Virus genome (UHGV): UHGV-0206691
DNA: 45,469 bases
Source of the DNA: a virus
Reading direction: 5' to 3' (one strand)
Shown here piece by piece: positions 1 to 26,914 of this stretch. Below the pieces are notes generated by a model. The model was not told where the DNA came from and ran no database searches. It worked only from the letters and a program-made list of their open reading frames with translations. Each line of letters opens with the position of its first letter. Position 1 is the first letter of the stretch. A program made the position numbers and the translations under genes.

Positions 1-39
1 CTGGAGGATACCACGGGTAGGAATTATCCTAATAACGGT

Positions 40-333
40 TTATTTGTGTCTCCAGATGTATTGTCGTCTCTGTGGTTTCGTCGGGATATCATCGTACCCC
101 AGCGATTTCCAGTAATTAAACAACCGATTAGCGATAGCGGCCCGTTCCTGTGTTTTAAACTCACCGAGATTCACGGCCTTCCCGTTCTGGAATCCACATG
201 CGCGGATAGCTTTGCGTCTGGCCTGAATCTCTGGGTACAGCGCGTTACGACGGCGCTTGTATATTCGGGTGTTAGTTCTCGGCGACAGCGGCGCAAGGCC
301 GCTTCGTTCCAGGATGTCGGTTGCGAGGCTCAT
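40..333 (-). CDS. hypothetical early protein (97 aa), last gene of leftward early operon
   Basis: ORF track; co-directional and 6 nt downstream of gene 340..804; basic, no recognisable motif. Confidence 0.4.
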   Translation of the reverse strand: MSLATDILERSGLAPLSPRTNTRIYKRRRNALYPEIQARRKAIRACGFQNGKAVNLGEFKTQERAAIANRLFNYWKSLGYDDIPTKPQRRQYIWRHK

Positions 334-339
334 TTTACA

Positions 340-804
340 TCACCCCACAACCCGGTATGCAATAATGTCAGAACCTCGTTCGCCGTTACATAACCACCAG
401 CGATAAATACCCGAATCTTCCTTATACGCGATGGTTCCGTCGCGGAATTTAACATCGACAAGCCTCCCAGGAACAGGGTTTTCACCTTCGAGCCATACTG
501 TCCACGCAGACTCCTTCCCGTCATGTTCCACCCCTTCCACGTGTGTAATTGACCCACAGTTCGCGCACTCAACGTAATCCGGGAACTGGTCTTTGTATTT
601 CTGTAACTCAGCGTTTACTTCTGCCAGTCTTGACACAAGCCCCTCTATTTCCGTGTCTGTAGTTGTTATGTAGTCCTGGAAATCATCATCCAGGTCCTTG
701 TAGTCTTCGTAACTTACCCAATCGCCTTCGTCATTCTTCACTAGCTCGTGATACGGCTGGTACGGGTTAGCGCCAACGTCTTTAAACTCATATCTCCGTA
801 CCAT
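340..804 (-). CDS. hypothetical protein, paralog A (coiled-coil N-terminus plus W-rich C-terminal domain)
   Basis: ORF track 340..876 trimmed to internal ATG (MVRRYEF) preceded by AGGAG; C-terminus WTVWLEGENPVPGRLVDVKFRDGT...DIIAYRVV resembles C-terminus of 1006..1506 product. Confidence 0.55.
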   Translation of the reverse strand: MVRRYEFKDVGANPYQPYHELVKNDEGDWVSYEDYKDLDDDFQDYITTTDTEIEGLVSRLAEVNAELQKYKDQFPDYVECANCGSITHVEGVEHDGKESAWTVWLEGENPVPGRLVDVKFRDGTIAYKEDSGIYRWWLCNGERGSDIIAYRVVG

Positions 805-805
805 G

Positions 806-1009
806 TTATTTCTCCTGTTTACCAAGTCGCTTAGGTGAGCAGATAGCGCGTACCTCTGAATCGTTGGGCTTGTCACCCTGAAACAGGAAGTGCGCGTTCT
901 CTGCGGCGCGTGCCGCTGACTGGCACGCCTCCATCGAGTAAAACGTTTCTGATGCCGCGAGTTGCATCTGGCCTGCGGACAGTACCCAGATAAAGAGGAT
1001 GCTGGTCAT
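806..1009 (-). CDS. small putative secreted protein (N-terminal signal-like segment, 2 Cys)
   Basis: ORF track 806..1024; likely start MTSILFIWVLSAGQMQLAAS overlapping upstream stop (ATGA); its stop sits between RBS and ATG of the next gene. Confidence 0.4.
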   Translation of the reverse strand: MTSILFIWVLSAGQMQLAASETFYSMEACQSAARAAENAHFLFQGDKPNDSEVRAICSPKRLGKQEK

Positions 1010-1506
1010 TTCTTTAACCCGCATTTAATGCACATACTTGAAAGCCCCGCACCATAAAATTGCCAATCATGCTCACACTCTGGCTTGACTACACGGTAGC
1101 GGGTAATGTCTCCACGCCATCCGCGATGGTCCCAGCGCAGCTCCCCCGCTACTCCAGGTTCGCATGCACTTGTCCCGTCACGCATCCTGATTTGTACAAT
1201 AGTATCTTTCGGCACCGGACACTCACCACCTTCCCACTTAACCCACGGCTCCGCGACCTGAGTGTCTTCTTTACGGCAACCGGATTGCTTCGACCCGTAC
1301 CCACCTTTGCGGATAAGTTTGTACGCCTCCACATCACCCGTAGCTTTAACCAGCGCCAGATGCAACTCCTTAATCTGCGCCGACGCATCACGTAACTGAT
1401 TCTTAAGTGACTGCACTTCATGCGCCAGGTCTTCGCACTGTTTGTTATTTACCTGCTGCCGTAGCTGGTCAATCAGGTACTCGAATACTTCGTTTTTGCT
1501 ACTCAT
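1006..1506 (-). CDS. hypothetical protein, paralog B (coiled-coil plus W-rich C-terminal domain)
   Basis: ORF track 1006..1608 trimmed to ATG (MSSKNEV) preceded by GGAGGAGACAGAAG; C-terminus WVKWEGGECPVPKDTIVQIRMRDGT...DITRYRVV. Confidence 0.55.
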   Translation of the reverse strand: MSSKNEVFEYLIDQLRQQVNNKQCEDLAHEVQSLKNQLRDASAQIKELHLALVKATGDVEAYKLIRKGGYGSKQSGCRKEDTQVAEPWVKWEGGECPVPKDTIVQIRMRDGTSACEPGVAGELRWDHRGWRGDITRYRVVKPECEHDWQFYGAGLSSMCIKCGLKK

Positions 1507-1717
1507 CTTCTGTCTCCTCCCCATCATATTCTTCGAATATAAAGTCATCGTCTGCGGATAGCGCCCATCGACCGTACCCCGTGTAGTAGACATCAAGTTC
1601 AGTGCCATTGTCGTCTATTATGTAGCAGCGACTTTCGTCGCCGTCTTCTTTGAGGCGGTAAAAGTCATTTTTAGTCAGCACCCAATAACCATCATAGGAT
1701 TTACATTCCAGGAACAT
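1499..1717 (-). CDS. hypothetical acidic protein (72 aa)
   Basis: ORF track 1499..1810 trimmed to ATG (MFLECKSYDG) preceded by GGAGACAGAAG. Confidence 0.45.
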   Translation of the reverse strand: MFLECKSYDGYWVLTKNDFYRLKEDGDESRCYIIDDNGTELDVYYTGYGRWALSADDDFIFEEYDGEETEDE

Positions 1718-1829
1718 CTTCTGTCTCCAGTTCATCGTAAACACGTTCATTGTCGCCATCGCATACGCAGCAAACTCGCAACTCAGCGTAAAGCTGTTCC
1801 ATTTTCTCAACCGCCAGGTACTTATACAT
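1701..1829 (-). CDS. small protein (42 aa) with CCVC motif
   Basis: own reading, below track size cut-off: ATG preceded by GAGAGGAGAGACAGAAG; stop overlaps next start. Confidence 0.3.
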   Translation of the reverse strand: MYKYLAVEKMEQLYAELRVCCVCDGDNERVYDELETEDVPGM

Positions 1830-1860
1830 CTTCTGTCTCTCCTCTCGTTTGTGTAAATGA

Positions 1861-1889
1861 ATAGTAGTCTATTCTATCACAGTGTGCAA
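1861..1889 (-). promoter_or_regulatory. early promoter, TTGCAC-N17-TACTAT class
   Basis: minus strand reads TTGCAC, 17-nt spacer, TACTAT, then TCA; AATAG-N4-CTATT inverted repeat overlaps -10; lies just upstream of gene 1701..1829. Confidence 0.5.
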
Positions 1890-1896
1890 GTAAATT

Positions 1897-2073
1897 TTAT
1901 TGGTGTTGCGAATTTACGTGATGGCACTTTCTACACTTATGCGTAACCGAGTCACCAAGGTACGAGATTAACTGTACCTGCTCGCTTCCGCAGTTGGTGC
2001 ATTTACGGTAACTACGGGCCGCGGCATCCCGCTTTTCAACAAACCCCATAAGTTTCTCAGTGAACGTTTTCAT
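1897..2073 (-). CDS. small zinc-ribbon protein (58 aa, CxxC...CxxC)
   Basis: own reading: MKTFTEKLMGF...CTNCGSEQ...HKCRKCHH; GGAGAT upstream of ATG. Confidence 0.35.
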   Translation of the reverse strand: MKTFTEKLMGFVEKRDAAARSYRKCTNCGSEQVQLISYLGDSVTHKCRKCHHVNSQHQ

Positions 2074-2197
2074 TGTTGCATCTCCTGCAATAGTCGCTTC
2101 GATTGTTGCGTTTGGTGAAATAGAACAAAAATGAGAAAAATGATACGCTGCTGTGTAGCAGCGTAAGTCACTCAGTAAAATCCCAAACTATTGAACA

Positions 2198-2383
2198 TCA
2201 CACTTCCGGCGGCTCAGGTAACGGCATCCAGTGCGTTATATCACCGCGATATAAACTCTTTGCTGGCCCCCAGTAGCCATCTGTATTAACACGCATAACC
2301 TCACAGCCATCAAAACCATCAGTTACAAGAACGTATTCATAAGGTTCCGGCATCCGCTCACTACACTTAATCCACTCTCCCAT
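2198..2383 (-). CDS. DUF551-like phage protein
   Basis: ORF track; C-terminal HWMPLPEPP motif, recalled as a DUF551 hallmark. Confidence 0.5.
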   Translation of the reverse strand: MGEWIKCSERMPEPYEYVLVTDGFDGCEVMRVNTDGYWGPAKSLYRGDITHWMPLPEPPEV

Positions 2384-2392
2384 AAATCACCC

Positions 2393-2530
2393 CTTATTCG
2401 CCACAGCTTGCACACCAGCTTTCCACGCCCGCCACGCGAGACGGGTCTTAACGTTCAGGTACTCTTTCTTCGGACCCTTGTTAACAGGCAGACCCTCGAC
2501 GACGGCCCACCGCTCGAATGCTTCTCTCAT
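2393..2530 (-). CDS. small hypothetical protein (45 aa)
   Basis: own reading MREAFERWAVVEGLP...; stop overlaps start of DUF551 gene. Confidence 0.3.
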
Positions 2531-2533
2531 AAC

Positions 2534-2755
2534 TTAGTCCTCACTTAATGCCTGAGTCGCTGCCAGGATGATAGCTGATAAACATTGCGCGCAAGGCTCT
2601 TGCCTGAATCCGTTTTCTACAGCATATAAGGCGTGTTGGGCATCCCGGAACAGCCATTCACCGTACGATGGGGTAGCTCGGCACCACGTTTCTACTTTAC
2701 TCGTCGGCAATTTAACCCCATCCAGATGGTCTACCTTTATTATGTGTTTTCTCAT
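2534..2755 (-). CDS. hypothetical protein (73 aa)
   Basis: ORF track 2534..2785 trimmed to ATG (MRKHIIKV) preceded by GGGGG. Confidence 0.4.
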   Translation of the reverse strand: MRKHIIKVDHLDGVKLPTSKVETWCRATPSYGEWLFRDAQHALYAVENGFRQEPCAQCLSAIILAATQALSED

Positions 2756-2815
2756 ACCAACCCCCACAACGCGTGCACCACACATACGGCGCTGACAATT
2801 AAAATGAACAGGTAA

Positions 2816-3055
2816 TTATTCACGGCAACCTCCCTCAGAGTCGTCGGCACGAGCATCATGATTCGATGCCGTTGTGAATAACGCTAGCCATCTCCAGGTA
2901 TAAACACACATACGTCCTTCATATACATCCTCATCAGTTACCCTGTAATCATCGCCATCATCTGAGGTAATGCACCCATCGCTACTTAGCACATAACTTT
3001 TTCCTTCTGTGAAGTAATCACATAGACTGGTTATACAAATTAATTCTTCCATCAC
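2816..3055 (-). CDS. hypothetical acidic Cys-containing protein
   Basis: ORF track; co-directional in early operon. Confidence 0.4.
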   Translation of the reverse strand: MMEELICITSLCDYFTEGKSYVLSSDGCITSDDGDDYRVTDEDVYEGRMCVYTWRWLALFTTASNHDARADDSEGGCRE

Positions 3056-3237
3056 TTCACCCCTTTGAATTTAAAATTGTTGCCGATGAGTTCTAAATCC
3101 CACTTGCGGAGTAACCCTTTACCAAACCCGGATACGCTATTAACCTCAACGAAACCGAACCACATTAACTTTGATTCTGTTACCGTAAATAAATTGCCTG
3201 TAAATTTATCCCTAACCAACTGACCCTTCTTAAACAT
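3052..3237 (-). CDS. hypothetical protein (61 aa), first gene of leftward early operon
   Basis: ORF track; AGGAG upstream; promoter 3272..3300 upstream. Confidence 0.45.
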   Translation of the reverse strand: MFKKGQLVRDKFTGNLFTVTESKLMWFGFVEVNSVSGFGKGLLRKWDLELIGNNFKFKGVK

Positions 3238-3271
3238 AACCCTAACTCCTCTGTCTCGTTCCGATAAGTGA

Positions 3272-3300
3272 ATAGTATCCTATTATGTTGGGGTGTGCAA
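3272..3300 (-). promoter_or_regulatory. early promoter, TTGCAC-N17-TACTAT class
   Basis: minus strand reads cTTGCACaccccaacataataggaTACTATtcactta; near-identical to the promoters at 26855, 36202 and 38070. Confidence 0.55.
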
Positions 3301-3746
3301 GAGATTCATTGAAAATGGTTACGTTGCCGTTGTGGATTCTTTCGTTTCTTGGAAGAGTACGCAACGCAGTGGGTGGGCGTTAGCCCACCCCAGCGGAGTG
3401 AAGTACTCTCAACAATGCTCACGGCAACTATAGAAACTTTTAATTATCAGATACTTAAGAGATATGCTGCCGATGAGAATAGAGCTTGCCCATGGCAACC
3501 GGAGATACTAAGGAAGGAAAGTTACGATAATTCATATGTTCAGTAATCTGCCGCTTAACACTTCGCTTGCGCTTTGGCGCAGCTGCGTTTCAAGCGGGTA
3601 TTACAAGGTGAACAGGAATCAAAGTAACTAAGATATAGAAGCACCTTAAACGAAGATTTTCATAATGTCAATAGGTGCAATTATGTTTGATTTCCCATTA
3701 TTCGCAATGTATGCTTGGTTCGTTAACTGATAATGAGGGTTTGAGA

Positions 3747-3917
3747 ATGACGCAGAATGAAGTAGCGGAGCGTATCGGGGTTACTCGCCGCACACTGAAT
3801 AACTGGTTAAAGAGTGGGAAGTTCCCGGATTGCTGTATTCGCATTATGGGCCGCCGTCAGCCAGGTACGTTTGACCCGGCGAAAGTGGAAGCGTGGATTA
3901 AGGAGAACGTGAAATGA
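3747..3917 (+). CDS. AlpA/excisionase-like HTH DNA-binding protein
   Basis: ORF track 3675..3917 trimmed to ATG (MTQNEVAERIGVTRRTLNNWLKSGKFP) with GAGGG upstream; HTH_17-like pattern. Confidence 0.55.
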   Translation: MTQNEVAERIGVTRRTLNNWLKSGKFPDCCIRIMGRRQPGTFDPAKVEAWIKENVK

Positions 3918-4147
3918 CCGAGTTTCAGTCGCGTGTATTTACGGCGGTCGTTTCATTAACACGTAAAAAAGGGTCTTGCAGTGTTATGGACTTGCGCCGT
4001 AGTTATTTTAGGTACTATAGTTCCGCCATTATTGAAGGGTCGTTGAGAGTGCTGGTTAAATCTGGTGTCGTGAAAAATGCTGGCGGGAAATATAGTGCTG
4101 TTGCTGAAGTTCGCGGAATGGCCGCTACTTTAGAAGACCTGGAATAA
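3914..4147 (+). CDS. hypothetical protein (77 aa)
   Basis: ORF track; start overlaps upstream stop (ATGA). Confidence 0.45.
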   Translation: MTEFQSRVFTAVVSLTRKKGSCSVMDLRRSYFRYYSSAIIEGSLRVLVKSGVVKNAGGKYSAVAEVRGMAATLEDLE

Positions 4148-4204
4148 AAGAAAGCCCCAGCGTTAGAGCGCCGAGGCCAAATTACTTGCTGAAGGAAATA
4201 CAAC

Positions 4205-6472
4205 ATGTCCGATGTAATTTTATCCTACTCGTGGTCACGTCGCAACGCGCGAGCAGAGAAAAAGGATATAAACGTCAGAACCACACACACGGCAACACTG
4301 GACGACCTGAAAGAGTTAATCCAGCCGCTCGATGCCGTTCGCGACGGAATTAATCCGAAGACTGCGCCAGGGTATATCACCGCCGCGTGTGACCAAACCC
4401 ACAGCACCGTAAAAGACCCGGAAACTGGCGACTTTAAGCAAGCGCGTAAAGGCTTTTTCTATCGCTGTGATGCGTCTGTAAGCAAATCGTCGCTGGCGTA
4501 TCTGGACTTCGACAGCGCAACACCGGAAGAGTATCAGGAAGCGGTGCGCCTGGTTAAGCGCAGCCGCCAGGCGATGTGCCTCTATACCACGGCATCCCAT
4601 ACCGACGAGTCGCCGCGCTTTCGCGTCGTCATGCCACTGGCCCGTCCGGTTGAGGGTGGTGACATCATCCGTGTTCGTCATGGGTTGCTGGAACACTTCT
4701 TCAAAGGCATGGGTGCGGACCGCAGCGGGTTCACTCTGTCCCAGCCGATGTACCTGCCGCCGGTTGGCTCTCAGGTTATCTGGTCGCGCCGCAACGACCT
4801 GATTGACCCGGAAGAACTGCTGGAAGGCATTCCCGCCGTTGACGTTAGCAGCGCATCGGATTACCAGATACCGGAAGAACTGCGCACTGCGTTTACTGAT
4901 GCGTTCGAAGCCCTGGCGTTCGAGTACGGCGGTATCATGACACCACGCGGCCTTAAGATGCCAGCTACACCAGAACACGCAGAAAACTACAGCGACCCGA
5001 CGCCGCGCCCGGACGACTTCCTGCTGTGCTTCCCGCGGGAGGGGTACGAAGCGCCGAACGTAACCATGATTCACGACACCGACATTACGGCAACCGAAGG
5101 CATGTCGCCGAAAGAGGTGTGGAAGTATGCGTGTGATGCGACCGGGCTGCCGTTCAGTGAAGTCGCTGAGGCTATAGGATGGGGTGCACGTGAATCTGTT
5201 TCATGCAGCCTCGACGACCTGGAAGACGACGAGGATCCAGGGGAGGACGAGCTGCCGGAGCCGGTAAAGGCTGACTTCGTCGTTGAAGGGTACATGCCGT
5301 CGGATTGTATCTGGGACATTGTCGGGGAGTCCGGCACGTACAAATCATTCTATACGCTGGGGGTGATGTACCTGAGCGCCGCCGGATACCGGTTTGCAGG
5401 CGCTGACACACAGCGTTGCCACCACTTCTATATTGACGGTGAAGGTGGCGCAGCTACACGCACCCGTATTGACGCGCTCGCGGCTAAATACGGCGTGGAA
5501 GGTAAAGATTATGTACACGTCATCGATATGGGTGAAGTAGGCAAACTTAAAAGCCTGATTAAGTTAATGCGCGAAACTGCTGGCGAAGAGCCAATCGGCA
5601 TGGTCGCGTTTGACACCCTCAACCAGACCCTGGCACTGACTATTGATAAGTTCGACGAGAACAGCTCATCAACGGCAATCGGCATGGGTAAAGTTATCGC
5701 CATCCTGAAAGAAGTGCGTGACGCGACTAAAGCCGCGGTAGGCGTTGTCCATCATACGCCGAAAGGCGGAAAGAAAGCCCGTGGCAGCGGGGCGTTGTAT
5801 GCTGGTGTCGACGTGGAACTGACAATCGAACGTGCCACCGACCGACAGATAAACGTATACCACTCGAAATTTAAGCACGGGCCTCAGCAGAAAACTGTCG
5901 GTATGGTGCTTGAGTCGGTACAGTTCCGCGAAGCGCCGCCGCCGAAAGAATACCGCGCGGTTGAGTTCCTGGGTAACACCGAGGAATACGGCGCAATCGT
6001 AAACCTGGACCTGCCAGAACCACACAAGGCGCTTGTACTGATGCCGTGGGGCTTTGAGCCGTTCAAGACTGACGAGGAGAAAGAGCGGGAAGAAGGGCTG
6101 ACAAAGGAAGGTAAAGAAAACGTACGTAAAACCGTAGAGAATGCCGTCAACAGTTCAGAGGCCACGATACTGGCAGCGTTTGAACTGGCAGAAGGAACCT
6201 ACAACGGCAACGAAGGTATCACAGTAGCCGCAGCGAATAAGCTCGCACAGTCAGACCCCAACGCAAAGGCGTTTAACTCCAAAGAAGCCATAGAACGCGG
6301 AAAGATTAAGAAAATGGTTGAGGCCGGGTATCTTGTACCGGGAACAGATGAAAACAATCAGATAATCCAGGGCCGTTACAGACTGAACACCCGAATAACG
6401 GATAACAAGATTCCGAAGACAATATACGAACCGAATGAAATGCTGGCGGTGACAGAGGAGGATTTAGAATGA
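4205..6472 (+). CDS. bifunctional primase-helicase (AEP primase-polymerase N-terminus, RecA-like/DnaB-like ATPase C-terminus)
   Basis: ORF track; YLDFD catalytic-type motif in N-terminal half; Walker A-like GESGTYKS and Walker B-like VAFD; good RBS GAAGGAAA. Confidence 0.75.
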   Translation: MSDVILSYSWSRRNARAEKKDINVRTTHTATLDDLKELIQPLDAVRDGINPKTAPGYITAACDQTHSTVKDPETGDFKQARKGFFYRCDASVSKSSLAYLDFDSATPEEYQEAVRLVKRSRQAMCLYTTASHTDESPRFRVVMPLARPVEGGDIIRVRHGLLEHFFKGMGADRSGFTLSQPMYLPPVGSQVIWSRRNDLIDPEELLEGIPAVDVSSASDYQIPEELRTAFTDAFEALAFEYGGIMTPRGLKMPATPEHAENYSDPTPRPDDFLLCFPREGYEAPNVTMIHDTDITATEGMSPKEVWKYACDATGLPFSEVAEAIGWGARESVSCSLDDLEDDEDPGEDELPEPVKADFVVEGYMPSDCIWDIVGESGTYKSFYTLGVMYLSAAGYRFAGADTQRCHHFYIDGEGGAATRTRIDALAAKYGVEGKDYVHVIDMGEVGKLKSLIKLMRETAGEEPIGMVAFDTLNQTLALTIDKFDENSSSTAIGMGKVIAILKEVRDATKAAVGVVHHTPKGGKKARGSGALYAGVDVELTIERATDRQINVYHSKFKHGPQQKTVGMVLESVQFREAPPPKEYRAVEFLGNTEEYGAIVNLDLPEPHKALVLMPWGFEPFKTDEEKEREEGLTKEGKENVRKTVENAVNSSEATILAAFELAEGTYNGNEGITVAAANKLAQSDPNAKAFNSKEAIERGKIKKMVEAGYLVPGTDENNQIIQGRYRLNTRITDNKIPKTIYEPNEMLAVTEEDLE

Positions 6473-6783
6473 ATATTTACGATTTTATAGATAACCCGTT
6501 TAAAGCAGTGAAGGCGGGGTACCGCCCGTCATACCTGACATGTGTTTCCGCGGTAAGCGGCCACTGGTGGACTTTTTGCGTGTACACAGCAGGGATTTTT
6601 GCGGAGTTTAAAGACGTTTTAGATATGACACTGGCGGAGATTATAAAGTGCCTTTTCAAGTTGATTATCGCGATAGCTATTGTGGTAAGTTTTCCTGTAA
6701 GTGTGTGGTTTCTTGCCTGGATTCAGTACCTGAACGTGCAGCACACGATTAAGAATTTGGAAGAACTCGATAAGTTGCAATAA
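6469..6783 (+). CDS. small membrane protein
   Basis: ORF track; ATGA overlap with primase-helicase; hydrophobic segments IAIAIVVSFPVSVWFLAWI. Confidence 0.45.
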   Translation: MNIYDFIDNPFKAVKAGYRPSYLTCVSAVSGHWWTFCVYTAGIFAEFKDVLDMTLAEIIKCLFKLIIAIAIVVSFPVSVWFLAWIQYLNVQHTIKNLEELDKLQ

Positions 6784-6786
6784 AAA

Positions 6787-6808
6787 GAAAGGGGCATTAA
6801 GCCCCTTC
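6787..6808. terminator. hairpin terminator between convergent genes
   Basis: aaaGGGGCattaaGCCCCttc stem-loop; overlaps the last codons of the XRE gene. Confidence 0.5.
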
Positions 6809-7012
6809 ACCCAACGCCAGCCACTTGGCGTCTACTTCCAGCACTTCCGCCAGTTTAAACAGCGTTGCCGGGCGGACGTCCTGAGTTACTCCGAGTGCAA
6901 GCTGGTTAATCGCGCCCTGGGAAACGCCAGCCAGGACCGCCAGACGGCGCTGGGAGATGCCGAGTTCTTTGCGGCGTTGTTCTACGCGTATGCCTAGTTC
7001 AGATGGTTGCAT
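6797..7012 (-). CDS. XRE-family (Cro/CI-type) HTH transcriptional regulator
   Basis: ORF track; LGISQRRLAVLAGVSQGAINQLALG helix-turn-helix; AAGGAG RBS; divergent from gene 7137. Confidence 0.7.
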   Translation of the reverse strand: MQPSELGIRVEQRRKELGISQRRLAVLAGVSQGAINQLALGVTQDVRPATLFKLAEVLEVDAKWLALGEGA

Positions 7013-7076
7013 GTCAATTACTCCTTAGTCAGTTGATATGTGAATAGTACCATATTAATTATTTTAGAAAAGCCCA

Positions 7077-7105
7077 TTGACATGTGAATAGTTCGCTATT
7101 ATAGT
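7077..7105 (+). promoter_or_regulatory. sigma70-type promoter TTGACA-N17-TATAGT with AATAG-N4-CTATT inverted repeat in spacer
   Basis: ttgacaTGTGAATAGTTCGCTATtatagt, 31 nt upstream of gene 7137 with GAGAGGAGAG RBS. Confidence 0.6.
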
Positions 7106-7136
7106 TAGCCCATACCAAACGAGAGGAGAGAAACAA

Positions 7137-7658
7137 ATGTTAGACCAATTCTTAAAATTACTTGAACGTTTCGTAGTTGCACATGAACTGATTGCCGCGA
7201 ATAGCGTGAAACCACAAAACGGCAAATCAGTAGGTGAATTAACCGTTGATGTTGCGGTAACGGGAGTAGAAACAGTTAAAAAAGAACTGGCTAAAGCACT
7301 TGAAGAAGTCGAGAAAGCAAAAGAAATCCCGGTTGAAGGCAAAGACATCGTCGACACCAAACCTGCGGAAGAAGAGAAGCCTAAACGCAAGCCGCGTAAA
7401 GCTAAAGTAGAGGAGCCGGCGCTAGAGCCGGAAGAAGAGAAAGAAGAAGTCGATTACCAGTCTCTGCGTGACCAGATTCAGGCTATCGACGATGCGATTA
7501 ACGAAGGTCCGAGCGATGCCGCGTGCGATGATTCCGATGAACTGCTGGAAGAGTTCACCGGTAAGAAGATGAAGATTGCCGCGATTAAAGACGAAGACCT
7601 GGCTGAGTACCTGGAGCGCCTGACAGCAATCAAGAACAAGTATTTCGAAGAAGAATAA
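7137..7658 (+). CDS. highly acidic hypothetical protein (173 aa)
   Basis: ORF track; runs of E/D (EEEKPKRKPRKAKVEEPALEPEEEKEEVDY, DDSDELLEEF); first gene behind a strong promoter. Confidence 0.55.
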   Translation: MLDQFLKLLERFVVAHELIAANSVKPQNGKSVGELTVDVAVTGVETVKKELAKALEEVEKAKEIPVEGKDIVDTKPAEEEKPKRKPRKAKVEEPALEPEEEKEEVDYQSLRDQIQAIDDAINEGPSDAACDDSDELLEEFTGKKMKIAAIKDEDLAEYLERLTAIKNKYFEEE

Positions 7659-7665
7659 CTATCCT

Positions 7666-7684
7666 GCGGCCTTCGGGCCGCTTT
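7666..7684 (+). terminator. intrinsic terminator
   Basis: GCGGCCttcgGGCCGC followed by TTT directly after stop of gene 7137..7658. Confidence 0.55.
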
Positions 7685-7701
7685 AACTGAGGGTCGGAAT
7701 T

Positions 7702-8091
7702 ATGAAATACGAAGATATGAGCGATTTTGAAATTAATTGTGCAGTGGCAGTCGCATTAGATTTGAATGAACATTTGTTCTTCCCGTCGGGCGTAGAAGAC
7801 TTTGATAGTGATACCGATGATTCAGACATGGGGCCGGTGTGGCAAACAAGAATGCCGTTTGTTAAAGGTTTTAGACCTTCTAATGGTAATTTATTTAACC
7901 CGTGCAACAACATAGACATAGCGTGGCAAATTATAACCCGCAATCATATATCAATTGAATGTGTTACGGTAAACCGGCATACAGTTACATATCGCGCGTA
8001 TCACTCTGCATCTTTCACCAAAAGTACGCACGAAAACCCCCTACGCGCCGCTATGATTGTCTTTCTGAAAATGCGGGAGAAGGCGCAATGA
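7702..8091 (+). CDS. hypothetical protein (129 aa)
   Basis: ORF track; GAGGG RBS. Confidence 0.5.
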   Translation: MKYEDMSDFEINCAVAVALDLNEHLFFPSGVEDFDSDTDDSDMGPVWQTRMPFVKGFRPSNGNLFNPCNNIDIAWQIITRNHISIECVTVNRHTVTYRAYHSASFTKSTHENPLRAAMIVFLKMREKAQ

Positions 8092-8360
8092 TTTACCAAC
8101 TCTACCGCGCCGTGGACAGGCGGGATAACACCGAGGCGCTATGGCTGCTGCGCGCGCCGTCCGGTGCACACCAGATGGAAGAGATGGCGTACTTAGGCAA
8201 AGTACCGCGGCCTAAAGGTATCGGCCGTCACGTGTCGCAGATTAAGCGCACGACTTTCGCCAAACCTGACTTTTATGTCTTCGAGTCGATGTATGGGTGG
8301 GCTATGCACTGCGACCATAAGACACGACATTTAATTGACCAGTGGGAGAGCAGGGTATGA
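8088..8360 (+). CDS. hypothetical protein (about 90 aa)
   Basis: ORF track 7959..8360 trimmed to ATG (MIYQLYRAVDRR) with GGGAGAAGG RBS and ATGA overlap with upstream stop. Confidence 0.45.
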   Translation: MIYQLYRAVDRRDNTEALWLLRAPSGAHQMEEMAYLGKVPRPKGIGRHVSQIKRTTFAKPDFYVFESMYGWAMHCDHKTRHLIDQWESRV

Positions 8361-8704
8361 CTGATAAATGGTGGCTTAATTTGCGCAGCGGCGACAAAGT
8401 TTACACCGTCGGCGACCGCAGAAAGAACAGCGGTGTAGCTACTGTGCTACAAAACAGCAAAAAGTACATACACATTGCGCATGAAGCTCGCGCACTCCGC
8501 GTGAATAAATCGTCTGGCAGGCTTGAGGATTACCCGAAAACCTTAATATATAAAAGTGAAAAGCATCACATTGACGCTGTTGACGCAAGACGTAAGTTCG
8601 CAGGAATGCTGCAACAGTTAAGCGACTTACATCGCGATGATTCTTTCATTCCCACAGAAGAACAGCTACAGGCATTAAACTTGTATTTGGAGAGTTTACG
8701 ATGA
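8357..8704 (+). CDS. hypothetical protein (about 115 aa)
   Basis: ORF track 8342..8704 trimmed to ATG (MTDKWWLNL), ATGA overlap with upstream gene. Confidence 0.45.
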   Translation: MTDKWWLNLRSGDKVYTVGDRRKNSGVATVLQNSKKYIHIAHEARALRVNKSSGRLEDYPKTLIYKSEKHHIDAVDARRKFAGMLQQLSDLHRDDSFIPTEEQLQALNLYLESLR

Positions 8705-9990
8705 TTCTTAAAGAACGCGGTGGAAATAACGATGTGCACGCCTTACTGTCGCCATCTGGCGCTAAGAAGTGGCTAAGCTGCGCCGCATCACTGGCCTGTG
8801 AAAAAGATATTCCTAACACGTCCGGTAAAGCAGCCGTTACAGGGACCGCGTGCCACACTATTGCTGAGGTCCATCTCAACGCCTATATCCGCGGAACCGC
8901 GCTACCGTTAGAGCGTGAAGTCGGCGCTTACGTGCTGGATGAAGGTAAAGGCCAGATTAAGGCGCTAATCAGCCCGATGAAAGGAGCGGTACTGATTACG
9001 GCGGATATGATTGAGCAGGTGCGCAAGTACACCGACTACTGCAAAGCGATTATCGACGTGGCGACTTACGCCAAGCTCGAGATGCGCGTCAATCTTACTG
9101 AAGTATTGCATCCGGGGTACAAAGTACCTGCTGAGAGTGAAGAAGGTAAGGAGGATGGTTTAGAGACATTCGGAACAGCCGACTTAGTGGCGGTTATAGA
9201 AGGCTTTACGGGTGAAAGTAACTCCGCGATGCTCATTATCGGCGACCTTAAAACAGGACGACATCGTGTCGAAGCGAAAGAAAACAAGCAGCTTATGCTT
9301 TACGCGCTCGGTGTTTATCGCCGACTAAAAAGACGTTATAACATAACAATTGTTCGTCTGGTCATCTTCCAGCCGTATGCCGGCGGTGCGTCGGAGTGGG
9401 ATATCTCGGTTGAAGGTCTTGAACTGTTTGCTAAGTTCGCACAGAAACGCGCGCTGTTAGCACTCGATGCGTATTTCCGTGGTAAGAAGAACCTGAAAGC
9501 GTCCGACTTTAAGCCGTCAGTCGATGGTTGTCAGTGGTGTCGTTTCTCGGAGCAGTGCGCCGCGCGTACAAAGACGGTTAACGCGGTACTGGCAGAAGAA
9601 CTGGAGGACGACTTTGCGCTGGAACTGACGCCGGAGCAACTCGTAACTGAGTATGAGAAGTTGCCGCTGTTGCGCCAGCACATCGACAAGGTTGAGAAAG
9701 CTATGGCCGCCGCTTTGCATTCCGGTAAGAAAGTGCCGGGATATAAGCTGGTTGAAGGTCGTCCTGGAAATCGTGCGTGGAAAGATGCCGATGCGATTGA
9801 AGTGTCACACGGCGACATTCTCAAAAAAGAGGTATTGATGTCCCCTACGGAGGCAGCAAAAGTTCTTTCGGCGGATGAGATGGCCGCGCTTGAGCCGTTT
9901 ATTACCCGTAAGCCTGGCGCACCATGTGTCGCAACGGCAGACGACAAACGTCCTGAGTGGAATCAGGTTAGTGAAGAAGATTTAGAATAA
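8701..9990 (+). CDS. PD-(D/E)XK-type nuclease, DUF2800-like (Cas4/RecB-like fold with C-terminal Cys cluster)
   Basis: ORF track; N-terminal SPSGAKKWLSCAASLAC, central GDLKTGRH, C-terminal CQWCRFSEQC; sits next to SSB-like gene as in phage replication modules. Confidence 0.6.
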   Translation: MILKERGGNNDVHALLSPSGAKKWLSCAASLACEKDIPNTSGKAAVTGTACHTIAEVHLNAYIRGTALPLEREVGAYVLDEGKGQIKALISPMKGAVLITADMIEQVRKYTDYCKAIIDVATYAKLEMRVNLTEVLHPGYKVPAESEEGKEDGLETFGTADLVAVIEGFTGESNSAMLIIGDLKTGRHRVEAKENKQLMLYALGVYRRLKRRYNITIVRLVIFQPYAGGASEWDISVEGLELFAKFAQKRALLALDAYFRGKKNLKASDFKPSVDGCQWCRFSEQCAARTKTVNAVLAEELEDDFALELTPEQLVTEYEKLPLLRQHIDKVEKAMAAALHSGKKVPGYKLVEGRPGNRAWKDADAIEVSHGDILKKEVLMSPTEAAKVLSADEMAALEPFITRKPGAPCVATADDKRPEWNQVSEEDLE

Positions 9991-9994
9991 AGTG

Positions 9995-10023
9995 TTGACA
10001 CCTGAATAGATAGCTATTATATT
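9995..10023 (+). promoter_or_regulatory. sigma70-type promoter TTGACA-N17-TATATT with AATAG-N4-CTATT inverted repeat in spacer
   Basis: ttgacaCCTGAATAGATAGCTATtatatt upstream of gene 10084. Confidence 0.6.
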
Positions 10024-10083
10024 TCTAATCACTGGCCGGGCAGCTCCCGGAGTAAACGAAACTGAAAACTGAGGAATCGAGAT

Positions 10084-10722
10084 ATGGGTATCAAAGTTAA
10101 ACTGAGCAACGTGCGTATCGGATGGGTAGACGTTTATAAGAAAGCAGCGGACCGTGTAAACAGTCAGGGTCAACAAGTAGAGGGACAATACCAGCTTACC
10201 GCGTATCTGGATAAAGACGACCCGCAAATTGATAAAATTGAAGACGCTGTAACTGAGGTTATGACCGAAGCATTAGGTAGCGCTTCTGCCGCCGAAAAAT
10301 GGATGTCAAAAAACTTCGGCTTCGGGAACCATGCGGATAAATGCGCATTCCGCGACCTCGCGCAGCGCGACTCACCGATTGAAGGGCTAGAGGAAGGCTT
10401 GTATTTCATGGCTAAGAGCCGTAAGCAGCCTATGATTGCAACTTCTGAGGGTGAGGTGCAGTGTCAACGCGGCGGGCGTGTAGTTAAGGGCCTTACCGAA
10501 GCGGGTGACGATGTAGAAGGTAAGGAAGTTTATTCTGGTTGTTACGCTAATATCGTAGTTGATGTGTATTGGTACTCAACTTATAAAAACCTCGGTGTAG
10601 AACTCCTCGGTGTTCGCTTTAAGGACGACGGCGAAGCATTCGGCGGTGCCGGAGCTACCGTGGACCTTAACGACCTTGAGGATGACGAACCAGCACCGCG
10701 CCGCGAACGTCGCCGCCGCTAA
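10084..10722 (+). CDS. ssDNA-binding protein, DUF2815-like
   Basis: ORF track; size, acidic C-terminal tail (DLNDLEDDEPAP) and position after DUF2800-like nuclease. Confidence 0.55.
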   Translation: MGIKVKLSNVRIGWVDVYKKAADRVNSQGQQVEGQYQLTAYLDKDDPQIDKIEDAVTEVMTEALGSASAAEKWMSKNFGFGNHADKCAFRDLAQRDSPIEGLEEGLYFMAKSRKQPMIATSEGEVQCQRGGRVVKGLTEAGDDVEGKEVYSGCYANIVVDVYWYSTYKNLGVELLGVRFKDDGEAFGGAGATVDLNDLEDDEPAPRRERRRR

Positions 10723-10741
10723 TATCTGAATAAATTTAACT

Positions 10742-10766
10742 AAGGCCCTTCATTGGGCCTTTTTAC
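10742..10766 (+). terminator. intrinsic terminator
   Basis: AAGGCCCttcattGGGCCTTTTT after stop of gene 10084..10722. Confidence 0.6.
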
Positions 10767-10781
10767 TAAGGGTCGAAAACA

Positions 10782-11060
10782 ATGGCAGCGGAACTTAAGA
10801 GATACAGACGCATCACATACTGCAAATTTTGTAAGGCAGAAGGAAAAAAAGTTAGAGCAATTTGGATGACTAAATACCCTCCAGCTTACGGTGTACGAGA
10901 CTGGTATAAACACTATGCATGCGAGGAGCATAAACATTTAATAGAAGACACAGACCCAGACAGGACTTGGGCAGAAATCATAGAACGCGGTAAAAACAAG
11001 AAACAAGAACGCGACGACTATCTCACAGAAGCAGACTATCAGACGTGGTACAGACTATGA
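10782..11060 (+). CDS. hypothetical zinc-binding protein (CxxC...C..H)
   Basis: ORF track; YCKFCKAEGKK ... YACEEHKH. Confidence 0.45.
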   Translation: MAAELKRYRRITYCKFCKAEGKKVRAIWMTKYPPAYGVRDWYKHYACEEHKHLIEDTDPDRTWAEIIERGKNKKQERDDYLTEADYQTWYRL

Positions 11061-13309
11061 ACACATTGCTTTACTTAGACTTTGAAACATTCTCCGAAGC
11101 CGATTTAAAGAAAGTCGGCTCCTACGCTTACGCCGAACACCCGTCAACCGAAGTGCTAATCTGTACCTATGCTTTTGACGACGAGCCTGTGCAGGTATGG
11201 GATTGCACCGACGGCAGCGACATGCCGGGCGATTTGCACCGCGCACTGCGCCGCCTGGTTAAGCCGAACAGCCGCATCAAGATGGTGTGGCACAACGGTG
11301 GACTTTTCGACAGGCTCATCATGAAGCATTGCTGGGGCTTTGATATTCCGGTAAGCAACACCATTGATACGATGATTTGGGCGTTTCGTCACGCGCTTCC
11401 GGGTTCACTCGATGCGCTGTGTGAAGTGCTGGGCGTATCCGCGGACAACGCGAAAGATAAACGCGGCAAGGCGCTGATTCAGCGTTTTTCTAAACCTACT
11501 CCGAAGAACTACAAAATCCGCCGTTACACTGCTGAAACTCACCCGGACGAGTGGGCACTGTTTATCAAGTACGCCGTGAGCGACATCACCGCGATGCGTG
11601 AAGTCTTTCATAAGCTGCCGCGATGGGGTAACTCCGAGTTCGAAGACCGTGTACTGGAACTGGACCAGTTAATCAATGACCGTGGGTTTAAGGTTGACGT
11701 TGCACTGGCAGAAGCCGCGATTGAAGCCGTGGAGAAACACAAAGCGCAGTTACAGGAAGAGGCCCAACGCAAATACGGCGGATCGCTTACTGGGAAGGAC
11801 TTTCTGCCTATTCTGCGTGAACTGGCACCTGCGCACCGCATCCACAACGCACAGAAGTCTACGCTTAACGACCTGCTGGCGGACGATGATTTACCAGACG
11901 ACGCACGCACGATTATCGAAATGCGCCTCGGGGCCGCGTCTACAGCGTCAACGAAATATAACCCGCTACTGTTGGGCCGCTCGTCAGACGACCGCCGTCG
12001 CGGTTGCATTCAGTACGGCGGAGCCAAGCGTACATTACGATTTGCCGGTAAAGGCTTTCAGCCGCAGAACCTGGCGCGCGGGTACTATCACGACGACCCG
12101 AAGAATAAAAAGAAAAAAGTACGTTATGACTGGATGTCAGAGAAGGACTGGTGGAGAGTAACACACCCATTGTCCTACGGAATCGACCTGTTGTTTAAAG
12201 GCCGTGCGCACCGCCGTTTTGATGTAGCCAAACTGACAGCATCGACGGTTCGTAGCTGCATCATACCGGAAGCCGGGTATAAGTTTGTCGTCGCCGATTA
12301 CTCTAACGTTGAAGGCCGTGGTTTGGCGTGGCTGGCTGGAGAAGAAACCGCGCTCGATACGTTCCGCGCCGGGCTGGATATTTACTGCGTAACCGCGGGT
12401 AAGATGTTCGGAATGGACCCCGATTACATTCTCGAAAGCCGTAGTGACCTACGCCAGATTGGTAAAGCCTGTGAATTGGGCCTCGGCTATGCTGGAGGTG
12501 TTGGTGCTTTCGTTCAGTTTGCTAAAAACCTCGGCTTAAACCTTGTTGATATGGCAAAAACAATGGATGGGACTTTCCCCGACCACATCTGGGCGGCTAC
12601 TGCACGGGGCTATGAGTGGGCGCGTATACAGGAGGCAAAGCGACCGCCGCGTCCCGGTGAAAAGGACGACAGACCGTCGTATATTCTTGATAAGAAAGTG
12701 TGGCGTACCTGTGACGCTATCAAGCGCATGTGGCGCGAGTCTCACCCGGAAACCGTAGCGTTCTGGCGAGATATTGAAGACGCAGCTATGGCGGCTATCC
12801 GCAATCCGGGCAAAGAGTTCACCGCAGGACCACGCGGCGTTAAGTTTTCGCGTAACGTAGAGACAGACAACAACGGCAACAAAGTCGCTGGCTGGTGGTT
12901 GCGCATGACGTTGCCATCGGGTCGCGTTATGTCATACCCTGGCGTCGGGTTAAGCGTGTCGAAAGAGACAGACGAAGATGGAAAGGTGTCTACTAACGTA
13001 CGCATCAAGTACCAGGGGGAGAACCAGTTAACCCGTCAGTGGGGCTTCCAGTACACCTACTCCGGTAAACTGGTGGAAAACTGCACTCAGGCGCTGTGCC
13101 GTGATTTGCTGGCTAATGCCCTGCTTAACGTCGAAGCAAACGGTTACCCGATTGTACTTCATGTCCACGATGAGATTATCTGCGAGACACCAGATACCCC
13201 CGAGTACACGGTGGCTGAACTTGAGCGGTTGATGTGCGAATTACCGGAATGGGCCGAGGGGTTCCCTCTTGTAGCGGAAGGCGCGGAGATGAAGCGCTAT
13301 GCTAAGTAA
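11045..13309 (+). CDS. family-A DNA polymerase with 3'-5' exonuclease domain
   Basis: ORF track; N-terminal exo motif LYLDFETFS; palm motifs DYSNVEGRGLAWLAGE, GKACELGLGYAGGVGAF, VLHVHDEIICE. Confidence 0.9.
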   Translation: MVQTMNTLLYLDFETFSEADLKKVGSYAYAEHPSTEVLICTYAFDDEPVQVWDCTDGSDMPGDLHRALRRLVKPNSRIKMVWHNGGLFDRLIMKHCWGFDIPVSNTIDTMIWAFRHALPGSLDALCEVLGVSADNAKDKRGKALIQRFSKPTPKNYKIRRYTAETHPDEWALFIKYAVSDITAMREVFHKLPRWGNSEFEDRVLELDQLINDRGFKVDVALAEAAIEAVEKHKAQLQEEAQRKYGGSLTGKDFLPILRELAPAHRIHNAQKSTLNDLLADDDLPDDARTIIEMRLGAASTASTKYNPLLLGRSSDDRRRGCIQYGGAKRTLRFAGKGFQPQNLARGYYHDDPKNKKKKVRYDWMSEKDWWRVTHPLSYGIDLLFKGRAHRRFDVAKLTASTVRSCIIPEAGYKFVVADYSNVEGRGLAWLAGEETALDTFRAGLDIYCVTAGKMFGMDPDYILESRSDLRQIGKACELGLGYAGGVGAFVQFAKNLGLNLVDMAKTMDGTFPDHIWAATARGYEWARIQEAKRPPRPGEKDDRPSYILDKKVWRTCDAIKRMWRESHPETVAFWRDIEDAAMAAIRNPGKEFTAGPRGVKFSRNVETDNNGNKVAGWWLRMTLPSGRVMSYPGVGLSVSKETDEDGKVSTNVRIKYQGENQLTRQWGFQYTYSGKLVENCTQALCRDLLANALLNVEANGYPIVLHVHDEIICETPDTPEYTVAELERLMCELPEWAEGFPLVAEGAEMKRYAK

Positions 13310-13430
13310 ACTGATTATCGCGGTACTGGCGGGATTTGCTGCCGGTGTCTACTGTCACGAGGGCCAATACGGCATGATTGTCGCCGTACTGGGCATGTTC
13401 ATCGCAATTTATCTGTGGGTGCTGGAATGA
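13299..13430 (+). CDS. small membrane protein (43 aa)
   Basis: own reading MLSKLIIAVLAGFAAGVYCHEGQYGMIVAVLGMFIAIYLWVLE; start overlaps polymerase 3' end. Confidence 0.3.
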   Translation: MLSKLIIAVLAGFAAGVYCHEGQYGMIVAVLGMFIAIYLWVLE

Positions 13431-13512
13431 AAATATACTGGTTCTATGAAGAAGACTGCCGAATCTGTCCGCGCTGCGGGATTGAACATACGAAACGGGA
13501 GGGGTGCATATT

Positions 13513-13800
13513 ATGAGTACGCCTGAGGGCAAGATTCAGAAATACGCAAAAGACAGATTCGAGGCCCTGGGGGGCCTCGTACGAAAATTGTCGTACGAAA
13601 ATAGAGTGGGGGCCCCCGACCTGCTGGTAATCCTCCCCGGCGGCATCATCTGGTTCGTAGAGGTTAAGAAAGACGGAAGCACGAAGCCTGACCCGCATCA
13701 GTTACGGGAGCACGAGCGGATGCGTAAACGCGGCGCGAATGTTTTTGTCGTTGGTTCGTTTAAACAGGTTGACGACCTAATAGCGAACTATTATAGTTAG
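13513..13800 (+). CDS. VRR-NUC domain nuclease
   Basis: ORF track 13504..13800 trimmed to ATG after GGGAGGGG; PDLLVILPGGIIWFVEVKK PD-(D/E)XK core. Confidence 0.65.
   Translation: MSTPEGKIQKYAKDRFEALGGLVRKLSYENRVGAPDLLVILPGGIIWFVEVKKDGSTKPDPHQLREHERMRKRGANVFVVGSFKQVDDLIANYYS
13769..13797 (+). promoter_or_regulatory. sigma70-type promoter TTGACG-N17-TATAGT with AATAG-N4-CTATT inverted repeat in spacer
   Basis: ttgacgACCTAATAGCGAACTATtatagt inside the 3' end of the VRR-NUC gene, upstream of gene 13831. Confidence 0.55.
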
Positions 13801-13830
13801 TCATACGCCAACAATATAAGGAATTGAGAA

Positions 13831-14022
13831 ATGAAACACGAATATGACCGCAAACCAGCACGTGATATCGTACCGGGCGACATGATTTTCAACGTTAAGA
13901 CCCGCCAGCCGGTCGCCGTTGATACGGTGTTCGTCGAGTCGAACGGTAAACTGGTTATCGAAGATGTAACTGGTAACGTTACGGCGTTCGGGCGTAAAGA
14001 GCTGGTTTTGGTGGCGAAATGA
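13831..14022 (+). CDS. hypothetical protein (63 aa)
   Basis: ORF track; AAGGAATTGAG RBS; stop overlaps methyltransferase start. Confidence 0.45.
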   Translation: MKHEYDRKPARDIVPGDMIFNVKTRQPVAVDTVFVESNGKLVIEDVTGNVTAFGRKELVLVAK

Positions 14023-16721: not shown

Positions 16722-16855
16722 ACATCATAGCCCCCATTCCAGCATTGCAAAAACGTATCAAGGAACTTGAAGAGGAGGTTCTACACCTACGGCAGCAAAG
16801 AGACGCCGCTAACGCGCAACTGGCGTTTGTACTGGAGAAGTTATCAGAAGAGTAG
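16718..16855 (+). CDS. small coiled-coil protein (45 aa)
   Basis: own reading, GTG start overlapping HNH stop: NIIAPIPALQKRIKELEEEVLHLRQQRDAANAQLAFVLEKLSEE. Confidence 0.3.
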   Translation: MNIIAPIPALQKRIKELEEEVLHLRQQRDAANAQLAFVLEKLSEE

Positions 16856-16857
16856 AG

Positions 16858-16886
16858 AAAAGGCCCCAAACGGGGCCTTAGTTTTA
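16858..16886. terminator. bidirectional hairpin terminator between replication module and tailspike gene
   Basis: aaAGGCCCCaaacGGGGCCTtagtttta. Confidence 0.6.
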
Positions 16887-18860: not shown

Positions 18861-18872
18861 ATAGAGTCCTCT

Positions 18873-26854: not shown

Positions 26855-26883
26855 CTTGCGCGCCCCAATATAATAGGGTACTA
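26855..26883 (+). promoter_or_regulatory. early-class promoter TTGCGC-N17-TACTAT driving accessory cassette
   Basis: cTTGCGCgccccaatataatagggTACTATtcactta; matches promoters at 3272 (minus), 36202 and 38070. Confidence 0.55.
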
Positions 26884-26914
26884 TTCACTTACACCAACAA
26901 TGAAGGGGTTTAAA

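Follow-up and report, generated by a model that had tools for sequence, protein, structure and literature searches.

A 14-bp dyad at promoters throughout a Kagunavirus genome as a candidate operator set for a Cro-like regulator

The stretch of DNA analysed here, virus genome UHGV-0206691 (45,469 bp, referred to as the window at its full length), harbors a divergent locus in which a leftward gene for a small regulator of the XRE/Cro type is separated by 124 bp (7013-7136) from the ATG at 7137 of a rightward gene for an acidic protein. The two ends of the window adjoin each other in phage Schulenburg, and the window is therefore the complete, circularly permuted genome of a virulent Kagunavirus. 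The region is matched by 446 phage records, nearly all from the genera Kagunavirus or Jerseyvirus (subfamily Guernseyvirinae). A sequence-only reading of this DNA had described a leftward Cro/CI-type helix-turn-helix (HTH) gene at 6797-7012, a divergent acidic gene from 7137 and a consensus promoter between them, and all three were confirmed: the regulator matches Pfam HTH_3 with 47.2 bits (cut-off 23, E 2.3e-12, residues 11-65), the divergent open reading frame (ORF) encodes a protein with an isoelectric point of 4.58, and the promoter agrees with the consensus in 11 of 12 positions. Both copies of an AATAG..CTATT element described in the same reading exist as well, and that at 7087-7100 is perfect; the first copy is imperfect and lies at 7043-7056 rather than at 7044-7058. 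The features of the locus are the following.

6788 to 6808, minus strand: hairpin terminator 3' of the XRE gene, 8-bp stem with 5 G-C pairs, T-run on the minus strand
6797 to 7012, minus strand: XRE/Cro-type regulator gene, 71 aa, the sole leftward gene within a rightward block (3747-16721)
7043 to 7056: dyad O1, AATAGTACCATATT, one mismatch (right half ATATT), overlapping the -10 of the XRE gene's own promoter
7044 to 7052, minus strand: proposed extended -10 promoter of the XRE gene, TG (7052-7051), G, TACTAT (7049-7044), without a good -35, read from the sequence
7077 to 7105, plus strand: rightward promoter P_R, TTGACA-17-TATAGT, -35 at 7077-7082 and -10 at 7100-7105
7087 to 7100: dyad O2, AATAGTTCGCTATT, perfect, filling the P_R spacer, its last T being the first base of the -10
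7137 to 7658, plus strand: acidic protein gene, 173 aa (45 D+E against 27 K+R), first gene of the P_R transcript

The 71-aa XRE protein consists of the HTH domain alone, without a CI-type C-terminal oligomerisation or self-cleavage domain. Its best match among solved structures is 434 Cro (1zug, E 2e-6 at the sequence level, residues 6-68 of the query against 4-64 of the chain), and 434 repressor and P22 C2 match as well. 434 Cro is a dimer that binds 14-bp dyads, and the end-to-end alignment with this protein, also of 71 aa, supports the XRE protein as binder of the dyad. About 117 Kagunavirus records carry the protein at 95% identity or more, its Jerseyvirus counterpart is about 50% identical, and an intact gene is present in more than 540 phage records. 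The predicted recognition helix SQGAINQL is unchanged even in variants of 77-80% overall identity; in an exhaustive search of 1.84 billion representatives no other homologue with SQGAINQL was found, and a word-indexed search gave close relatives only. GenBank records name the gene variously Cro, repressor or hypothetical, and a paper on the group states that a repressor is absent (PMC12919940). The orthologue K1B4_004 (216 bp, alone on the opposite strand) is transcribed during infection and was classed as a middle gene (PMC12645636). The terminator lies between the convergent stop codons of a 104-aa gene (6783) and the XRE gene (6797), and an equivalent terminator is annotated in phage Schulenburg.

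P_R ties for the top promoter score in positions 1-20000 of the window. Conservation was assessed over 38 sequences, the window and 37 IMG/VR relatives, with identity medians taken over 36 relatives. TTGACA is invariant in this set and TATAGT is altered once (to TATATT, in relative L040). TGAATAG and CTATTATA, which hold the half-sites of O2, are likewise invariant, and the centre of O2 varies (TTCG, TTAG, CTAG, TTCA, TTTG, CTCG). The 4-5 nt separating the -35 of P_R from O2 (7083-7086 here) are hypervariable and carry indels; gain or loss of one base there gives a P_R spacer of 17 or 18 bp amid invariant surroundings. O1 is nearly invariant, its mismatched position being constant. This mismatch is the T of the TG element, converting AGG-TACTAT into TGG-TACTAT and thereby making the extended -10, so that it would both weaken the operator and compensate for the missing -35. 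An alternative XRE promoter, TTCACA(7088)-16-TAAAAT(7061), was returned by the promoter scan. Each dyad lies within one copy of a 25-nt direct repeat (7033-7057 and 7077-7101); the two copies share 84% identity at a spacing of 44 bp. TTGACATGTGAA and the 9-nt arms 7010-7018/7076-7084 were also considered as operators and were rejected, their columns varying among the relatives.

Median nucleotide identity is 96% for the intergenic region and 93.5% for the XRE gene, compared with 82% for the divergent gene and about 52% for the 104-aa gene and the helicase C-terminus, where different alleles occur. The XRE gene and the intergenic region thus form conserved islands amid mosaic flanks. These values also bear on a suggestion of the sequence-only reading, namely that the regulator might be a remnant of a temperate ancestor. 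As history this may hold, the protein being homologous to 434 Cro and to CI proteins of temperate phages and other lambdoid-type genes (NinX, NinH) being present in the genome. As a claim that the XRE gene and its operators have lost their function and are decaying along with an old immunity region it is hardly credible and close to refuted: the gene is intact throughout the records mentioned above, nothing in this mosaic locus is better conserved than the gene and its intergenic region, and the orthologue is transcribed.

The acidic protein belongs to no Pfam or NCBIfam family, contains no HTH domain and falls into phrog_3127 (function not known); none of its homologues among the matches listed falls below 85% identity. 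Which gene comes first behind P_R varies among the 37 relatives, with promoter, dyad and leader almost identical: in several of them an unrelated small ORF (MTNNRKAK..., MNIITGAI..., MKFRVDMQ... or MAKRKDYD...) precedes or replaces the acidic protein.

The sequence-only reading missed that the AATAG..CTATT element extends beyond this region: the same dyad, AATAG-N4-CTATT, overlaps at least nine further promoters outside 7013-7136. With up to one mismatch it occurs 12 times in the window against 1.18 expected, a count reached in none of 100 shuffles, and eight copies are perfect, where the base composition predicts 0.04. No other palindrome comes near it in enrichment in the window, in Schulenburg (7 copies) or in pC16EC0033-2, and it is enriched in Jersey too, as TAATAG-N4-CTATTA. 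Eleven of the dyads overlap sigma-70-type promoters. In ten cases, reading as the adjacent promoter does, a Shine-Dalgarno sequence and start codon follow after 27-65 nt; the site at 36127-36140 stands outside this distance check and was placed by its conserved overlap with a -35. The nine sites beyond the divergent region are listed below, together with the dyad-less promoter and the second small regulator to which they are compared further on.

1860 to 1873, minus strand: perfect dyad, promoter TTGCAC-17-TACTAT; the operon crosses the window junction into the holins and endolysin (44376-44933)
3271 to 3284, minus strand: perfect dyad at the leftward promoter of small genes starting at 3237
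10005 to 10018, plus strand: perfect dyad between the hexamers of TTGACA-17-TATATT, ahead of the SSB-like gene (10084) and the DNA polymerase gene
13779 to 13792, plus strand: perfect dyad between the hexamers of TTGACG-17-TATAGT, ahead of gene 13831 and the Dcm-type methylase and helicase genes
26872 to 26885, plus strand: perfect dyad with the -10 of TTGCGC-17-TACTAT, ahead of the cassette of a 63-aa ORF at 26915 and a phosphoesterase in the structural module
36127 to 36140, minus strand: one-mismatch dyad over a -35 (AATAGTTGACT), structural side, conserved in Schulenburg and pC16EC0033-2
36218 to 36231, plus strand: perfect dyad, promoter of a one-gene cassette (gene 36259-36492)
38086 to 38099, plus strand: perfect dyad, promoter of a one-gene cassette (gene 38130-38459)
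44249 to 44262, minus strand: one-mismatch dyad over the -35 of TTGACT-17-TATATT, downstream of the endolysin gene and directed towards the terminase and structural genes; conserved in Schulenburg, pC16EC0033-2 and Jersey
3687 to 3715, plus strand: dyad-less promoter TTGATT-17-TATGCT of the HTH_17/helicase-primase operon, read from the sequence
3747 to 3917, plus strand: second small regulator gene, HTH_17/excisionase family, 56 aa, first gene of the helicase-primase operon

With respect to the promoter hexamers the dyad is found in three registers. In class A (7087, 10005 and 13779, all plus strand) it fills the spacer, in the arrangement TTGACA-N4-dyad with the last T serving as the first T of TATAGT, and these sites are exactly the three top sigma-70 predictions in the first 20 kb. 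In class B (1860 and 3271, minus strand; 26872, 36218 and 38086, plus strand; and the XRE promoter at 7043, minus strand) it contains the -10, according to TTGCAx-N10-AATAGnnTACTATT. TATAAT, located upstream of TACTAT in this class, was considered as the real -10 and rejected: the conserved TTGCAx is 17 bp from TACTAT and 7 bp from TATAAT. In class C (44249 and 36127, minus strand) the dyad covers the -35 and always carries one mismatch (AATAGTTGACT). The Jersey site orthologous to that at 10005 retains both half-sites with a different centre, and at the promoter orthologous to 26872 the Jersey dyad is shifted 3 bp nearer to the -35, a different part of it serving as the -10. The two 5-bp half-sites carry the maximum of information content, the central 4 bp and the flanks little of it. 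Because of the three registers, the 3-bp shift at an orthologous promoter, this information profile and the conservation of half-sites and intergenic region among the relatives, the dyad is best regarded as a probable protein-binding site and not simply as a -10 or -35 element. Sites of known host factors were considered and rejected, as the consensus sequences of CRP, OxyR (ATAG-N7-CTAT) and LexA are not known to match the N4 spacing.

The motif as such is not new. It was published as seven PHIRE "phage promoters" of fBC-Eco01 with the consensus tgAATAGTa-ccTATTat-T, which matches the dyad sites of the window, and was ascribed to a phage-encoded RNA polymerase (PMC9825357); a similar motif count was given for Golestan (PMC7203180). 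A domain search of ORFs of at least 150 aa revealed neither an RNA polymerase nor a sigma domain, and the dyad sites coincide with -35/-10 pairs of the sigma-70 type. In a full-text literature search no paper was found that links the motif to an XRE or HTH_17 regulator. The published consensus could nevertheless be taken to mean that the dyad is a built-in element of phage promoter cassettes, which would have multiplied through duplication and recombination and be read directly by host RNA polymerase with no dedicated binder, all the more as several sites share longer promoter and leader similarity (e.g. 36218 and 38086) and the right half-site is part of the -10 in one promoter class. The left half-site, in turn, occupies spacer positions that are not read by sigma-70, the registers differ as described, and the twofold symmetry is kept while centre and flanks drift. 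An explanation of this kind is very improbable.

The single conserved intergenic promoter found without a dyad is that of the helicase-primase operon (3687-3715), whose hexamers and 17-bp spacing are kept in four genomes. O1 and O2, in turn, are the only conserved dyads adjoining the XRE gene, as expected of an autoregulated XRE protein. From this arrangement and the relationship to 434 Cro we infer that the XRE protein binds the dyad, that binding represses, and that the promoters respond in a certain order. Its identity as the dyad binder is, in our estimate, somewhat better than an even chance, and much the same weight is given to the wider proposal that it is an autoregulated Cro-like repressor controlling nearly all phage promoters during lytic growth.

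Underlying this proposal is the layout of the 124-bp region, with two back-to-back promoters of the sigma-70 type, each overlapped by one dyad copy, a strong rightward one for the acidic-protein and replication genes and a weaker leftward extended -10 promoter for the 71-aa Cro-like protein. On entry, host RNA polymerase would fire every phage promoter, and the XRE protein would build up from its weak promoter, possibly with a lag if transcripts of the helicase-primase operon read towards the XRE gene through the shared hairpin (6788-6808). The Cro-like dimer would then bind the dyad and block host RNA polymerase, with O1 over the -10 of its own gene providing negative autoregulation. Perfect dyads would be occupied first, namely those of P_R, of the two other replication promoters, of the small-gene and lysis promoters and of the cassettes. 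The one-mismatch dyads at the XRE promoter and the structural-side promoters would be occupied later and thus be repressed last, and the dyad-less helicase-primase promoter would escape. The XRE protein may therefore act as a genome-wide damper or timer of host-polymerase transcription in lytic growth rather than as one half of a lysogeny switch. Since the lysis cassette is located behind a perfect dyad, the protein may damp transcription or control dosage no less than act as a temporal switch. The timing of early-to-middle expression, which had been offered as a possible role, fits the evidence for lytic growth and is too narrow for an operator that overlaps about eleven promoters. With moderate confidence the system may be described as a regulator of the Cro family in a virulent phage, with operators that are unusually dispersed.

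Several observations weigh against this proposal. Between Kagunavirus and Jerseyvirus the XRE proteins share only 49% identity, with the recognition helix reading SQGAINQ in the former and SQSLITH in the latter, yet both genera share the same dyad core. The HTH_17 protein encoded at 3747-3917, in contrast, is 86% identical across both genera and occurs in exactly the same approximately 443 genomes, so that on conservation alone it would fit the dyad better than the XRE protein does. Phages St162 and VLCpiS11a, more distant members of the Guernseyvirinae, keep an XRE gene, and no clear genome-wide dyad was found there, hence no clean covariation: in St162 (XRE 41% identical) only a loose TAWTA-N6-TAWTA pattern with mixed half-site orientations is seen, and the palindrome scan of VLCpiS11a gave no enriched dyad. 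A clean symmetric A-to-T change of the dyad with the type of XRE protein was considered and is rejected by the same two genomes. In addition, a lysis cassette behind a perfect-dyad promoter is awkward for a simple shut-off of early genes, and the sole RNA-seq study, which is coarse, puts the XRE orthologue among the middle genes (PMC12645636).

The HTH_17 protein scores 29.6 bits against a cut-off of 27, belongs to phrog_66 and matches an NCBIfam excisionase domain below the cut-off. It is absent from St162 and VLCpiS11a, where, in the regions 9779-12685 and 5298-7900, respectively, the XRE gene is co-oriented with the helicase-primase gene and heads that operon, i.e. sits where Kagunavirus and Jerseyvirus have HTH_17. 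It is thus conceivable that the HTH_17 protein is the dyad binder, made early from its dyad-less promoter and repressing or modifying the dyad promoters, with a narrower or different role for the XRE protein. In line with this, its predicted recognition helix TRRTLNNW is nearly unchanged across the dyad-sharing Kagunavirus and Jerseyvirus, the two phages that lack it also lack the AATAG dyad, its own promoter carries none, and its orthologue K1B4_008 (183 bp) is one of only four early genes (PMC12645636). The nearest families of the HTH_17 protein, all of them weak matches, are the excisionase domain, BldC and the terminase small-subunit HTH. Proteins of these families usually bind direct repeats and not perfect inverted repeats. 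Furthermore, this assignment would leave the XRE protein without a conserved operator beside its own gene, and the phyletic pattern is confounded, as both genes occur in the same approximately 443 genomes and nowhere else. Taken together, the HTH_17 protein is an unlikely binder, though one to be reckoned with, and the XRE protein is preferred.

A lysogeny switch is not supported, and the locus is not a bistable one of the lambda/434 type. The sequence-only reading had called the architecture typical of lysogeny switches, which is true of the divergent promoter and operator layout; only one repressor gene is present, it lacks the CI C-terminal domain, and no prophage copy was found. That reading had also reported neither an integrase and excisionase pair nor an attachment site. 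A Pfam search of ORFs of at least 150 aa detected no recombinase domain, and no integrase is annotated in Schulenburg, Jersey or St162; an excisionase-family protein does exist in the form of HTH_17, without an integrase partner. Of the two findings named in that reading as its refutation, neither an integrase nor a silent XRE gene was encountered, the K1B4 orthologue being transcribed. RDF-like (recombination directionality factor) and Ant-like genes have been noted in Jerseyvirus as temperate-type features without lysogeny functions (PMC9409062). The search of host genomes that the sequence-only reading had proposed revealed no prophage in 5,426 complete E. coli genomes with a 12.8-kb query across the locus. 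The sole match is a CRISPR (clustered regularly interspaced short palindromic repeats) spacer of E. coli 2017.09.02CC (NZ_AP025214.2, 4038605-4038639), 100% identical to the 35 nt at 6815-6849 inside the XRE gene. The XRE protein has no close relative in the representatives of 185,579 species, where the best match is 49% identical and comes from an unrelated metagenome-assembled genome and the others are generic XRE proteins. Among the database clusters listed, contigs bearing the XRE or acidic protein do not exceed about 47 kb. The group is consistently described as lytic (PMC7203180, PMC9825357, PMC12919940).

Two records deserve mention in this respect. Entry CP088689.1 presents a complete Kagunavirus genome of 44,086 bp as a circular "plasmid pC16EC0033-2" from an E. 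coli blood isolate, and in the E. coli isolate assembly GCA_026180655.1 another such genome makes up a contig of its own (ABJJUQ010000019.1, 43,041 bp); neither is integrated. These copies could reflect contamination or chronic carriage or, with low probability, an episomal state. In the latter case, the XRE protein would silence every dyad promoter, while the dyad-less operon of the RepA-like helicase-primase would keep a circular, non-integrated genome replicating like a plasmid. The distribution of the dyads, on the replication-accessory, lysis, cassette and structural-side promoters and not on that of the helicase-primase, would suit such a carrier state, as would the two records. Domain searches of the ORFs, on the other hand, revealed no partition, integrase or CI-type gene, only 1 of 72,556 plasmid-database records carries such a genome, the published descriptions as lytic speak against it, and contamination or chronic lytic carriage can also put phage contigs into isolate assemblies. 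A plasmid-like carrier state is therefore rather improbable; if it were true, phages treated as strictly lytic and used in therapy or biocontrol could enter it.

The gene order surrounding the divergent locus is that of annotated relatives and comprises three parts.

Small leftward genes and the lysis cassette (endolysin 44376-44933), leftward
3747 to 16721, rightward block: HTH_17, helicase-primase, XRE (reversed), acidic protein, NinX, DUF2800 nuclease, SSB-like protein, PolA, Dcm-type methylase, helicase, HNH endonuclease
16884 to 41824, structural genes, leftward

The locus is strongly mosaic (window 4205-6783 compared with relatives). The helicase-primase shares 58% identity with that of Jersey but only 32%, confined to the C-terminal half, with its counterpart in the Kagunavirus Schulenburg; for the SSB-like protein the values are 44% with Schulenburg and 68% with St162, and NinX is 95% identical to that of Jersey. 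About 400 bp of apparently non-coding DNA (3290-3686) separate the divergent leftward and rightward early operons and contain conserved blocks and a G+C-rich hairpin (3372-3391, GGGTGGGCGTTAGCCCACCC). This segment may represent a replication origin or encode an RNA that lacks annotation; an Rfam search of the window, 3290-3686 included, gave no match. Three self-contained plus-strand cassettes (26872-28755, 36218-36517 and 38086-38483) are embedded in the minus-strand structural module, each with a promoter whose -10 lies inside the dyad and with a terminal hairpin terminator, which in the middle cassette was called on the opposite strand and is presumably bidirectional. The first encodes the 63-aa ORF, orthologues of which are annotated as superinfection immunity protein, and the phosphoesterase, the other two encode proteins of 77 aa and 109 aa, respectively.

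Guernseyvirinae are among the commonest siphophages of E. coli and Salmonella proposed for therapy and food biocontrol. Their "Cro/repressor" gene has in some cases been passed over, in others taken as a marker of lysogeny, and in one paper said to be absent (PMC12919940). Should it be part of a promoter and operator system that spans the genome of an integrase-free phage, it need not count as such a marker. The published reading of the motif as the promoter of a phage RNA polymerase is corrected by the present findings. What the present analysis adds to the known motif suggests that the dyad is a genome-wide operator set, possibly tied to the Cro-like regulator. If the XRE protein acts as proposed, expression of this 71-aa protein should make cells resistant to infection, and cross-immunity is to be expected among phages with the same dyad. 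Consisting of a single small regulator, a single 14-bp dyad and some eleven promoters of three geometries, the system would offer a tractable model and could show how a virulent phage that uses host polymerase schedules or damps its transcription.

In order to place the locus among known systems it was compared with four groups of regulators. 434 Cro agrees with the XRE protein in its length of 71 aa, in the end-to-end alignment (E 2e-6) and in the proposed 14-bp dyad target that overlaps promoters, that of the regulator itself included. The half-sites differ (AATAG-N4-CTATT here, ACAA-N6-TTGT in 434), as do the residues of the recognition helix. Unlike in 434, the proposed system has neither a partner CI nor a triple operator, is found in a non-integrating phage and comprises about eleven dispersed sites instead of two local operator clusters. 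With the immunity regions of lambda, 434 and P22 the locus shares the back-to-back divergent promoters with dyad operators (O1, O2) and a regulator read away from the replication genes. These switches differ from the present locus, which has a single repressor, a divergent gene without an HTH domain, and no CI C-terminal domain, integrase, att site or prophage copies. The HTH_17 protein departs from its excisionase relatives in having no cognate integrase in the genome. The PHIRE promoters of Kagunavirus are the same motif, reported in seven copies per genome, for which neither dyad symmetry nor an operator role nor a link to an HTH gene was proposed (PMC9825357).

The dispersal of the sites is best compared with P1 C1 and with gp71 of mycobacteriophage L5, which are repressors that maintain lysogeny and bind dispersed asymmetric sites in many operons. 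The stoperators of L5 are orientation-dependent and act inside transcription units. The sites described here are instead twofold symmetric and located on promoters, and the phage is virulent; what the systems would have in common is a large number of sites across a phage genome, eleven of them promoter-associated in this case, and one small regulator proposed to serve them.

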